NCBI GenBank assembly: GCA_963711005.1
Contig: CAVQCJ010000002.1
Coordinates: 1,243,729 to 1,307,728, forward strand
Direction of reading: 5' to 3'
Origin: an uncultured Actinomycetota bacterium
GTDB taxonomy: Bacteria > Actinomycetota > Actinomycetes > Prado026
DNA: 64,000 bases
Of the stretch, positions 35,009-37,198 are shown in pieces. Each line of letters begins with the position of its first letter. Position 1 is the first letter of the stretch. The translations under genes and the position numbers were made by a program. The notes under the pieces are model-generated. The model saw nothing but the letters and a program-made list of their open reading frames with translations. It was not told where the DNA came from and did no database searches.

Positions 35009-35605
35009 ATGTCCGCGCCGGCGTACCAGGTGGTGGTGCTGGCGGGCGGGCGGTCGCGACGGTTCGGCTCGGACAAGCTCGTGCTGCTGCTGGACAGGAC
35101 GTTGGCCGGACTGCCGCCCGGTGTGCCGGTGGTCTGCGTCGGCCCGCTGCGGCCGACGCCGTCCAGACCGGAGGTCGTCTGGGCGCGCGAGGAGCCGCCG
35201 GGGGGCGGGCCGCTGTCCGCCGTCGCCGCCGGCCTGCGCAGCGGCACCGGTGCCCGTCCGCCCGTCCTGCTGCTGGCCGGCGGGGACATGCCCGCGGTCG
35301 GCGCCGCCGTACCCGCGCTCGTGGCGGCGCTCGACGAGGCCGGCGACGCGGTCGACGCGGTCCTGCTGTCGGACGCCGCCGGACGGGGGCAGGTGCTGGC
35401 GTCCGCCTGGCACCGGGCCGCGCTCGAGGCTGCGGTCGGCGCGCTGGGCGCTGCCGGCGGCACCGACGGGGTCCCGCTGCAGCGCGTCCTCGACGGCGTG
35501 CGGGTGCAGCTGCTGCCGGACCGTTGGGGGGCCGCGCGCGACGTCGACACCCCGGCCGACCTCACCGCCCCCGGCACCGCCCTCCCGAAACCTACGGTCG
35601 AGTAG
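35009..35605 (+). CDS. MobA-like NTP transferase (molybdenum cofactor guanylyltransferase-like)
   Basis: 198-aa ORF: VVLAGGRSRRFGSDK, GGGPLSAVAAGL, LAGGDMPAV (NTP_transf_3 pattern). Confidence 0.7.
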   Translation: MSAPAYQVVVLAGGRSRRFGSDKLVLLLDRTLAGLPPGVPVVCVGPLRPTPSRPEVVWAREEPPGGGPLSAVAAGLRSGTGARPPVLLLAGGDMPAVGAAVPALVAALDEAGDAVDAVLLSDAAGRGQVLASAWHRAALEAAVGALGAAGGTDGVPLQRVLDGVRVQLLPDRWGAARDVDTPADLTAPGTALPKPTVE

Positions 35606-35638
35606 CGCAGCCGTACTGCCGTACCGCACCGTAGGTTT
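35586..35638. repeat. 53-nt conserved palindromic element, copy A
   Basis: cgaaacctacggtcgagtagcgcagccgtactgccgtaccgcaccgtaggttt. 11-bp perfect arms aaacctacggt (35588-98) / accgtaggttt (35628-38). It contains the TAG stop of the MobA-like gene and ends 5 nt before the GTG at 35644. It is 42/53 identical to copy B without gaps. Confidence 0.8.
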
Positions 35639-35643
35639 GCGGA

Positions 35644-36336
35644 GTGGCCGGGTTCCAGGCTTCGGTGGACGGGTTCGCCTTCGCGAACTCGTGGCCGCCG
35701 CAACCGGCGATCGAGGAGCAGACGCCGTTCGGCCGGGTGCCGATCGGCGACGCATCCGGCGGGCTGTGCGGCGGCATGGTGTTCGCCGCGCTCGACTACT
35801 GGCACGCCGGGGTCGCGGCACCCACGGCCCGGCCCGCGCTGCACGACCCGCTGTACGACTTCATCGTCCAGCGGCTGATCGACTCGTGGCACATCCCGGC
35901 CGGCGTCGTGCAGTACTACCAGTGGATGGTCCTGCCCGACACCGACCGCGTGGTGTCGGTGCTCGGGCACGACATCGTCGCCGAGCGCGGGCTGTCGTGG
36001 CGGACGCTCACCGTCGAGTGGCCGCAGATCCAGGCCGACCTCGACAACGGCGTCCCGGTCCCCCTCGGCCTGGTCACCGTCGCGTCGGTGAACCCCGCGG
36101 ACCTGGCCGCCAACCACCAGGTGGTCGCCTGCTCGTACGCCAGCGAGGGTGGTCGCGACGGGCGCATCACGATCACTGTCTACGACCCGAACAGCCCGAA
36201 GCGGGACGACGTGACGTTGTCTTTCGAGCTGGTCGACCCGGTCGGGCCGACGAGCTTCACCACCACCATCAACATCCGCCACCCCGTGCGCGGCTTCTTC
36301 CGCACCCCTTACGAACGAGCGCCCGTGCCGGCCTGA
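35644..36336 (+). CDS. hypothetical protein with papain/transglutaminase-like Cys...His...Asp motif order
   Basis: 230-aa ORF of normal composition: GDASGGLCGGMVFAAL (Cys42), AANHQVVACSY (His158), ITITVYDPNSP (Asp181). The start codon is uncertain (GTG 35644). The family assignment is inference from motif order only. Confidence 0.6.
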   Translation: MAGFQASVDGFAFANSWPPQPAIEEQTPFGRVPIGDASGGLCGGMVFAALDYWHAGVAAPTARPALHDPLYDFIVQRLIDSWHIPAGVVQYYQWMVLPDTDRVVSVLGHDIVAERGLSWRTLTVEWPQIQADLDNGVPVPLGLVTVASVNPADLAANHQVVACSYASEGGRDGRITITVYDPNSPKRDDVTLSFELVDPVGPTSFTTTINIRHPVRGFFRTPYERAPVPA

Positions 36337-37133
36337 CCGCCGTCCTGATCGCCGGCCTGCTCGTCCGCGCCGACACTGGCCCAGGTGCCGACGACGGCCG
36401 TGGCGTCCAGCTCGTCCGAGCGGACGACGTGCGCGGTCAGGCCGGCACTGGTGAACGCCTCGAGGGTCTGAGCGGCCTGCGGCCGGCTGGTCTCGATGAG
36501 CAGGTGCCCGCTCGCGCGCAACCAGTGCGGCGCGTCGGCGGCGATCCGGCGGTGCAGGTCGAGCCCGTCCCAGCCCCCGTCCAGCGCCACCCGCGGCTCG
36601 TGCAGGCGCGCCTCCGGGGGCATCGTCGCGAGGGCGTCGGTGGGCACGTACGGGGAGTTGGCCACCACCAGGTCGACCCGGCCGCGCAACGAGCCGGGCA
36701 GCGGCGTGTACAGGTCGCCGGCGAAGACCTGGCCGCCGGCGTCGGCGAGGTTGCGGCCGGCGCACCGGACCGCGACCGGGTCGATGTCGACGGCGTACAG
36801 CTCGATCCGGTCGAGCCGAGCCGCCAGCACCGCCCCTACCGCGCCCGAGCCGCAGCACAGGTCGACGACGACCGCGCCCACGCTCGCGACAGCGAGCGCC
36901 TCGTGGACCAGGAGCTCGGTCCGGCGGCGGGGGACGAAGACGCCGGGGTCGACGGCGACCCGCGACCCGCAGAACTCCGCCCAGCCGAGAATGTGCTCCA
37001 ACGGGATGCCGGCCACCCGCCGGTCCACCATCGCGTCCAGCTCGGCGGGCGTCGCCGCGGCGTCGACGAGCAGCCGTGCCTCGTCCTCGGCGAACACGCA
37101 GCCCGCCGCGCGGAGCCGTTCGACGACCGTCAT
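36309..37133 (-). CDS. PrmC/HemK-related putative protein-(glutamine-N5) methyltransferase, substrate unknown
   Basis: 274-aa ORF with SAM motif I VVDLCCGSGAVG and motif IV VVANSPYVP (NxPY instead of NPPY, as in the actinobacterial PrmC-related family I recall as TIGR03704), plus HEPRVALDGG. GGAGGG lies 4 nt upstream of the ATG. The TAA stop lies inside the 3' end of 35644..36336. Confidence 0.8.
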   Translation of the reverse strand: MTVVERLRAAGCVFAEDEARLLVDAAATPAELDAMVDRRVAGIPLEHILGWAEFCGSRVAVDPGVFVPRRRTELLVHEALAVASVGAVVVDLCCGSGAVGAVLAARLDRIELYAVDIDPVAVRCAGRNLADAGGQVFAGDLYTPLPGSLRGRVDLVVANSPYVPTDALATMPPEARLHEPRVALDGGWDGLDLHRRIAADAPHWLRASGHLLIETSRPQAAQTLEAFTSAGLTAHVVRSDELDATAVVGTWASVGADEQAGDQDGGQAGTGARS

Positions 37134-37145
37134 GACCCTCCGGCT

Positions 37146-37198
37146 CGAAACCTACGGTTCGGTAGCGCAGGAATACTCGCGTACCCAACCGTAGGTTC
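37146..37198. repeat. 53-nt conserved palindromic element, copy B
   Basis: cgaaacctacggttcggtagcgcaggaatactcgcgtacccaaccgtaggttc. 11-bp perfect arms aacctacggtt (37149-59) / aaccgtaggtt (37187-97). It fills most of the 68-nt gap between the enoyl-CoA hydratase stop (37202) and the methyltransferase ATG (37133). Confidence 0.8.

Follow-up and report, generated by a model that had tools for sequence, protein, structure and literature searches.

The window analysed here, a 64,000-nucleotide stretch of contig CAVQCJ010000002.1 from an uncultured actinobacterium, carries two copies of a palindromic element of about 50 bp, one of which (copy A) overlaps the end of a gene for a MobA-like NTP-transferase, while the other (copy B) lies between an enoyl-CoA hydratase gene and a methyltransferase gene. 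We propose, with a probability of about 0.55, that both copies are members of a family of palindromic intergenic repeats that combine a hairpin at the 3′ end of one gene with an outward-facing −10 box, and that resemble the REP, TRIT (Tuberculosis Rho-independent terminator) and Correia elements. The family resides in an uncultured, high-GC actinobacterial lineage represented by soil metagenome-assembled genomes (MAGs) of the Microflora Danica type. The original prediction, made from the window alone, had listed four explanations, namely a shared operator, a leader or terminator hairpin family, a REP-like element, and the scars of a mobile cassette. The presence of the palindrome at many unrelated junctions, the covariation of its hairpin, and its turnover among relatives favour the REP-like or terminator-hairpin option.

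Copies A (35586–35638) and B (37146–37198) align without gaps at 42 of 53 positions, and the coordinates and counts first given for their arms, spacers and placement at junctions were all reproduced. The arms of copy A, AAACCTACGGT (35588–35598) and ACCGTAGGTTT (35628–35638), form a perfect 11-bp inverted repeat with a 29-nt spacer and contain inner TAC-N6-GTA units at 35593–35604 and 35622–35633; those of copy B, AACCTACGGTT (37149–37159) and AACCGTAGGTT (37187–37197), are likewise perfect over 11 bp and enclose a 27-nt spacer. Both copies are AT-rich for their surroundings, as had been noted, with a GC content of 0.60 (copy A) and 0.57 (copy B) as compared with 0.74 to 0.81. The 10-mer AACCTACGGT occurs with at most one mismatch at four sites in the window, all of them arms of the two copies; 0.72 sites were expected, and four sites were reached in none of 100 shuffles. 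At two mismatches the count in the 64-kb window is that of the background (18 sites, 20 expected), and a covariance model of the family found no third copy there. Either strand of both copies is predicted to fold into a hairpin of −34 to −38 kcal/mol (z-scores of −5.6 to −6.5). The placement of the copies was also as first described. The left arm of copy A includes the final six codons and the TAG stop (35603–35605) of the MobA-like gene, and a gap of 5 nt separates the element from the GTG at 35644, which starts a gene for a 230-aa protein. On the minus strand, copy B lies in the 68-nt gap from the hydratase stop (37202–37204), which is 3 nt from the element, to the methyltransferase ATG (37133).

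To place these copies, the window was compared with loci from related genomes and metagenomes, designated by L numbers. In related genomes, about ten further, unrelated junctions carry palindromes of the window type, with the flanking genes in tandem, convergent or divergent order. The tandem contexts comprise the two window copies, a junction between a flavin reductase gene and an RDD-family gene (L010), and a site downstream of a Meth_synt_2 gene (L013b/L015b). Convergent stops flank the element between the Usp and SdrD_B-domain genes of L075, which are supported by Pfam matches, and at site B of L024, whereas in L013/L015 it separates the divergent CN_hydrolase and DUF998 genes. Another copy lies between an open reading frame (ORF) of 123 aa and an aminotransferase gene (L008), and further copies of the window type are present in L077, L098, L121 and L135. 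A stop codon falls within the element in window A, in both elements of L024, in L026 A and in L015b, and 3 to 35 nt from it in window B, L075, L077 and L135; all copies are intergenic or overlap only the final codons of a gene. At least five copies are present in MAG MFD03975 (L008, L010, two in L015, and L022) and two in the 64-kb window. It had been foreseen that dozens of copies at the 3′ ends of unrelated genes would reduce the element to a generic repeat or terminator family. Such a distribution was found in kind, but at about ten loci and not at dozens per genome.

The family has the consensus cgAAACC-TAC-GGTnnn-GTA-(17 nt)-TAC-nnnACC-GTA-GGTTTcg and, over about 50 nt, the palindromic pattern cgAAACCTACGGT-nnn-GTA...TAC-nnn-ACCGTAGGTTTcg. 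Each arm is itself a small palindrome, CC-TAC-N6-GTA-GG, and the element consists of two such units in mirror orientation, joined by a 17-nt linker and separated by 29 bp from centre to centre (30 bp in L077, L121 and L135, and 36 bp in L024 A). In an alignment of 16 copies from about 11 independent loci, AACC-ACGG / CCGTAGGTT and the G/C of the inner GTA/TAC are invariant, and T12, T22 and A23 are conserved in at least 90% of the copies. The three nucleotides between the core and GTA, the linker, and two to five flanking nucleotides are variable yet complementary from arm to arm. In this alignment, 81% of the cells are paired and 15 pairs have changes on both sides; the covariation score is 0.263 as compared with 0.118 in shuffles (0 of 500 as high) and at most 0.115 with slid partners. 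The element is a genuine hairpin of 20 to 25 bp, or long palindrome, and is more than a pair of binding sites. The fold z-scores of all copies range from −2.5 to −12.6, and a covariance model of the family recovers the aligned copies at 53 to 77 bits and adds further copies in L013 and L152. Among the sense-strand mismatches in the stems, G-U (13) outnumbers A-C (5), an excess that weakly favours pairing as RNA but is too small to choose between a function as RNA and one as DNA. The 19 identities in 29 loop positions of copies A and B, which had been taken to tie the two copies to one another, were counted correctly, but a special pairing of A with B did not hold up. The inner 29 nt of copy A share 23 positions with the copy at the unrelated locus L010, and those of copy B share 20 with L008 and L098; because the inner sequence matches other loci equally well or better, the loop similarity is a property of the whole family.

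A second line of evidence is the turnover of the element at orthologous junctions, which were compared as the original prediction had proposed. The closest relative is MAG MFD03975.bin.2.2, whose corresponding locus (L022) has 93 to 95% nucleotide identity to the window and a TetR protein that is 97.6% identical. BLAST and MAFFT alignments with the window showed that L022 contains the genes for both the 230-aa protein and the methyltransferase as well as the orthologue of copy A, and that its site B is empty. The 66 nt missing from L022 (window 37136–37201, with edges that are uncertain by a few nucleotides owing to microhomology) comprise the palindrome and the minus-strand GGAGGG Shine-Dalgarno sequence (37136–37141). 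The hydratase stop and the methyltransferase start of L022 overlap as GTGA, and the two genes are translationally coupled without the element. In L026, where the 230-aa protein is 78% identical to that of the window, both genes and copy A are present, and site B is occupied by another subtype, a perfect hairpin with a 24-bp stem (AAACCTACGGGCAGGTAAGCCCGA...TCGGGCTTACCTGCCCGTAGGTTT). In L024 (74% identity), both elements are kept and the methyltransferase gene is absent, so that the site B element, of the same subtype as that of L026, lies between the convergent stops of a 241-aa gene and the hydratase gene. The element follows or overlaps the stop of the orthologous hydratase in both L026 and L024, and copy A has orthologues in L022, L024 and L026. 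Site A of L152 carries the second subtype, with a decayed left arm, and L149 has kept a 232-aa gene and the hydratase gene and carries the element at neither junction. Furthermore, the GGGCAGGTAAG subtype, with arms AACCTACGGGCAGGTAAGgCC, is identical over about 20 nt between the hydratase junction (L024, L026) and the unrelated Meth_synt_2 junction (L013, L015). Because sites are filled or empty, subtypes replace each other at one site, and the same subtype is shared by unrelated loci, we infer that the elements spread by copy-paste or by gene conversion between copies.

At its outward end, each arm carries the hexamer TAGGTT, a match to the TANNNT pattern of actinobacterial −10 boxes. In copy A, the right-arm hexamer (35632–35637, plus strand) is positioned exactly 6 nt before the GTG at 35644. 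The arrangement TAGGTT-N6-GTG is found at the gene for the 230-aa protein in five genomes, those of the window, L022, L024, L026 and L152, the last despite its different subtype; L149, which lacks the element, has TACCGT-N7-GTG at the equivalent position. TAGGTT-N6-start is also seen at the DUF998 gene (L013 and L015) and the CN_hydrolase gene (L013), where the Pfam domains begin about 10 residues after these starts. The spacing and its conservation suggest that a leaderless transcript starting at 35644 has its −10 box in the right arm of copy A. Because TANNNT at a distance of 6 or 7 nt precedes 5 of the 31 ORFs of the window, leaderless promoters would be common in this genome, which suggests frequent leaderless transcription in the organism. 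Besides 35644, the first start codons so preceded are those at 35009, 46969 and 51999 on the plus strand and 45454 on the minus strand. The first of these belongs to the MobA-like gene, which has the arrangement TAGGCT-N7-ATG at its start and is therefore probably transcribed separately, as a leaderless unit. Copy B presents a TAGGTT (37149–37154, minus strand) to the methyltransferase gene in the arrangement TAGGTT-tcgagcc-GGAGGG-tc-ATG; a promoter directed from this arm toward the methyltransferase is possible, although less well supported than that of copy A. Reading GAAACC...CGT as the −35 and −10 elements of an extracytoplasmic function (ECF) sigma factor was rejected upon inspection, as the spacings are not conserved between copies.

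Taken as RNA, then, the hairpin would mark or protect the 3′ end of the upstream transcript, either as a bidirectional terminator or as a 3′ stabiliser, and at convergent gene pairs it could work in either direction. Taken as DNA, the outward TAGGTT arm would serve as the promoter of the gene in front of the element, giving rise at copy A to a leaderless mRNA that starts at the GTG of 35644 and at copy B to a very short leader with GGAGGG before the methyltransferase ATG. An element of this kind may thus be a compact transcript boundary.

Several observations weigh against this proposal. The stem is followed by GGUUU only and by no U-tract; the canonical intrinsic terminator, defined by at least five U residues after the hairpin, was rejected on this ground, and a terminator scan of 34500–38500 gave no site. 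Mycobacterial RNA polymerase requires a U-tract in vitro (PMC3993855), and the mycobacterial TRITs overlap just 2 to 4% of mapped 3′ ends (10.1101/2022.06.01.494293). Termination is therefore only a putative function of the element. The copy number appears low for a REP-like element, with two copies in the 64 kb of the window and, in sequence totalling about 90 kb from the vicinity of a TrpB-like gene in five relatives, no new site beyond the known site A. No transposase was found in about 250 kb of loci by tblastn with a weak IS200 TnpA probe, and the filled/empty site of L022 shows no target-site duplication. A miniature inverted-repeat transposable element (MITE) was likewise considered and rejected: the termini are inverted, but the 66-nt indel is not bordered by a direct duplication, and the flanks of other copies are complementary and are not direct repeats. 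Lastly, the 10-nt core, the GTA at +6 and the 29-bp unit spacing are conserved beyond the needs of a hairpin. This strict conservation, together with the occurrence of the core in promoters of other actinomycetes, points to a sequence-specific protein partner.

This last point bears on the alternative that has survived best, although we consider it doubtful. In this scenario, the element is a composite operator in which dimers of a conserved actinobacterial transcription factor occupy two mirrored 16-bp sites (CC-TAC-N6-GTA-GG) placed 29 bp apart, the sites overlap −10 boxes and co-regulate the gene for the 230-aa protein, the methyltransferase gene and the other flanked genes, and the palindromy of the whole is simply that of two inverted sites. 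Such an operator would account for the core, the GTA offset and the 29-bp spacing being constant in nearly all window-type copies while the linker varies, for the low copy number of the family, and for the overlap with the −10 box, which is the usual position of a repressor site. It would also fit the finding of the core with GTA at +6 in divergent promoter regions, in two to four units with 15- or 30-bp phasing. However, copies between convergent stops (L024 B and L075) have nothing to regulate; positions that would go unread by a protein covary from one arm to the other, and the pairing reaches into non-conserved flanks; and subtypes with about 20 nt of identical arm turn up again at unrelated loci and substitute for one another at a single site. 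Moreover, the methyltransferase gene of the nearest relative (L022) lacks the site, the spacing in L024 A is 36 bp, and a regulator gene is not consistently adjacent. The convergent-stop copies, the covarying unconserved positions and the swapped subtypes weaken the suggestion that one regulator has a shared operator here, although the constant 29-bp spacing is operator-like and, with the shared core palindromes, suggests that a conserved sequence-specific protein is involved. An operator of this kind could coexist with a mobile palindrome.

Known or neighbouring regulators did not supply the binding protein. The published motifs of BkaR (GTTAnTnnnnAnTAAC; PMC3920632) and MadR (TCTGTGx7GT; PMC8872791) differ from the family sequence and both candidates were rejected, and no Lrp/BkdR-type regulator was found near the bkd-type sites described below by tblastn with E. 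coli Lrp. The TetR encoded in the window at 39165–39785 is an unlikely binder, since a separate palindrome over the −10 box of its own cluster fits it better. This is a perfect 7-bp inverted repeat, ACTTGAC-attagc-GTCAAGT (45455–45478), which the TetR probably uses as its operator. It spans a −10-like TAATGT positioned 6 nt upstream of the GTG at 45454 (minus strand), the start of the first carboxylase-type gene of an Atu/Liu-like cluster.

A scan of a genome collection identified the core AACCTACGGTnnnGTA in single-copy palindromes of other actinobacteria (L002/L005/L006/L019/L020, L001/L011/L012, L004/L009/L021 and L003). In five Kineococcus species and three Propionibacteriales genomes the gene downstream of the palindrome encodes a bkd/pdh-type E1, in three Streptomyces species a DesA-type desaturase, and in L003 a CoA-transferase. 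The GTA at +6, which was outside the search pattern, is present in these actinobacterial palindromes and absent from every non-actinobacterial match. The three Streptomyces orthologues show mirrored, compensatory differences at the central unit position. The desaturase genes of these Streptomyces loci also gave Rfam ASdes matches of 60 to 69 bits (L004 6889–6956, L009 2079–2146 and L021 3639–3706, minus strand). ASdes is the M. tuberculosis small RNA antisense to desA1, and the model probably recognises conserved desaturase coding sequence. A more speculative extension, which we hold only tentatively, is that the core AACCTACGGT-nnn-GTA is the site of a widely conserved actinobacterial repressor or hairpin-binding factor and was turned into a mobile promoter-plus-operator palindrome in the lineage of the window.

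A regulatory function in the transcript itself seems much less probable. Here the hairpin would be part of the 5′ untranslated region of the mRNAs for the 230-aa protein and the methyltransferase, and would act as an RNA leader or riboregulator by sequestering an adjacent GGAG. The CUCC...GGAG flanks of copy A do pair, and GGAG(G) is often found 2 to 6 nt after GGUUU in other copies, but the start codon follows copy A after 5 nt and has no Shine-Dalgarno sequence at a usable distance, and from the −10 geometry transcription is predicted to begin downstream of the hairpin. Stems as stable as these (−35 to −59 kcal/mol) would stay closed, copies are found at convergent gene ends, the palindrome reads identically on both strands, and no Rfam family matches. 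A dual hexaloop of the ANTAR type was also rejected; the units can fold as CCUAC-N6-GUAGG, but their loops are complementary and do not read AxxGxx, and Rfam was silent.

Least credible is the view that the copies are attC-, dif- or att-like recombination sites bounding a mobile two-gene cassette, for although each half, with its inverted triplets on either side of a 6-bp spacer, is similar to the core site of a recombinase, the methyltransferase gene comes and goes right beside site B among relatives, and attC sites likewise form hairpins at gene 3′ ends, the genes are kept where the element is missing (L022, L149), the elements are kept where a gene is missing (L024), a Micromonospora homologue of the gene for the 230-aa protein has another context and no flanking element, RYYYAAC/GTTRRRY cores are absent from the elements, no integrase or recombinase was found in the annotated neighbourhoods of the window and its relatives, and plasmid and phage collections gave no match. 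Elements and genes vary independently among relatives, and the copies therefore do not enclose a cassette; integron attC sites and gene cassettes were rejected on the same evidence. The filled/empty comparison largely refutes the cassette reading, and the claim that the two copies exactly bracket a 1.56-kb unit with att-like scars is contradicted by L022, L024, L149 and Micromonospora. The apparent two-gene module is a coincidence of two independent junctions.

As the original prediction had anticipated, the element corresponds to no named riboswitch, small RNA or operator. Rfam 15 gave no match in the window at the gathering threshold, permissive Rfam searches of the element region gave only chance microRNA-like matches (E of 0.16 or higher), and Rfam searches of the elements in 14 related loci gave nothing. 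The family sequence had no match in plasmid and phage collections, and literature sequence searches returned primer coincidences or nothing. A metagenome scan with AAACCTACGG...CCGTAGGTTT yielded more than 120 hairpins of all GC contents, most of which we regard as unrelated families that share a 10-mer by chance; only the high-GC hits L075, L077, L098, L121 and L135 have the GTA/TAC and spacing of the family. Among the others (L029–L148), the same arms occur in abundant 46-nt palindromes of low- and mid-GC freshwater and marine contigs, for example gcatttgaacgaAAACCTACGGTTTTGAATCC...AACCGTAGGTTTccgtcagatagc, which are without GTA/TAC units and apparently represent unrelated repeat families. 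What is new here is the family, which is unnamed and without an Rfam, plasmid, phage or literature match; elements of this kind are already known.

Within the phylum, the closest analogue appears to be TRIT, which was described with RNIE, has 147 copies per genome and is reported to be restricted to Mycobacterium; its authors inferred that an unknown factor reads the double-stranded motif (PMC3152330). TRIT has no entry in Rfam. Judging from its description, TRIT resembles the family of the window in being an actinobacterial, conserved, palindromic and bidirectional hairpin without a proper U-tail that is located at gene termini and often starts in the coding sequence just before the stop. The family differs in its few to perhaps few tens of copies and in its lineage, and neither promoter function nor filled/empty polymorphism has been described for TRIT. 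The REP/BIME/REPIN sequences of Proteobacteria, which are mobilised by RAYT transposases (PMC3116915, PMC3479197), are also short extragenic palindromes whose inverted doublets form a larger hairpin. Like the family, they are found at 3′ ends and in intergenic regions, fall into subfamilies and vary in presence between relatives, and they act as mRNA 3′ stabilisers or terminators, the role proposed here. REP sequences, however, have hundreds of copies, a GTAG at the 5′ foot and a cognate RAYT gene, whereas the copy number of the family appears low and no Y1 transposase was seen with the weak probe. Its CTAC (5′ arm) and GTAG (3′ arm) tetranucleotides lie inside the stem with a polarity opposite to that of REP, and the GTAG foot is lacking; in the open literature we found nothing that links RAYT or REPIN with Actinobacteria.

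The Correia elements of Neisseria (CREE/NEMIS) are small, palindromic, intergenic and mobile, measure 100 to 150 bp, and have terminal inverted repeats, a TA target duplication, an IHF site and hundreds of copies. Their ends create outward promoter boxes, their sites are filled or empty between strains, and hairpins in their transcripts influence termination and processing. The family shares the hairpins, the filled/empty sites and, putatively, the outward promoter-making ends, but has no visible target duplication. A different likeness is to the sites of BkaR (Rv2506), which are paired 16-bp palindromes overlapping the promoters of a mycobacterial cluster for leucine or branched-chain keto acids (PMC3920632) and, like the window copies, adjoin a cluster with acyl-CoA dehydrogenase, hydratase, carboxylase and TetR genes. 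Besides the difference in motif, BkaR sites lie in the divergent promoter of the regulator itself, and the window has the separate candidate operator at 45455–45478.

The genes next to the two copies are as follows. The MobA-like gene (35009–35605, plus strand) has a Pfam NTP_transf_3 match. The 230-aa conserved hypothetical protein (35644–36336, plus strand) has no Pfam match and is supported by homology. Its family comprises 1158 homologues at an E value of 1e-3 or better, typically of 227 to 246 aa and including Micromonospora, many of which cover 100% of the query. Downstream of copy B is the PrmC/MTS-type methyltransferase gene (36309–37133, minus strand; Pfam MTS/PrmC_N), and the enoyl-CoA hydratase gene (37202–38020, minus strand; Pfam ECH_1) is the final gene of an AtuA-TetR-ACAD-ECH cluster. 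In the AtuA ORF, a perfect 20-bp inverted repeat (CGTTGCATACGGATCGGGGG / CCCCCGATCCGTATGCAACG) with a 6-nt loop (40160–40205), unusually AT-rich for the genome, is located in the linker that joins the AtuA domain to the ferredoxin-like one. An imperfect palindrome, TGTACCACGGCAGGTACGGACTTGTCGTGGTACA, preceded by GACCTACGGC (22300–22375), is operator-like, falls outside the family and lies at the start of a region of small ORFs. Upstream of the MobA-like gene, the nearest relative has about 1.2 kb of extra sequence (L022 5133–6353, as compared with window ~34820–34866) within a gene with an HD/HD_5 domain, whose ORF is 717 aa in L022 and 512 aa in the window, reflecting an insertion or deletion of about 400 codons.

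For annotation, the two nearby copies serve as a warning against reading paired palindromes as the borders of a cassette or as a shared operator. Proteobacteria have familiar examples (REP/BIME, Correia) of palindromic repeats at which one transcript finishes and another begins, whereas in Actinobacteria such repeats are represented mainly by the poorly understood TRIT of mycobacteria. The core that the family has in common with palindromes found in cultured actinomycetes at the promoters of lipid and branched-chain-acid genes offers a lead to a binding factor. If such a factor exists, it would control the single-copy palindromes at bkd/pdh-type and desaturase promoters of Kineococcus, Propionibacteriales and Streptomyces, and its site, fused to a −10 box, would seed regulated leaderless promoters and terminators at gene junctions, a form of regulon rewiring. 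The filled, empty and subtype-swapped sites at 93 to 95% flank identity provide clean natural experiments. With an arm at precisely the position that the −10 box of a leaderless gene has to occupy, the family illustrates how compact, high-GC genomes may gain promoters and transcript boundaries.

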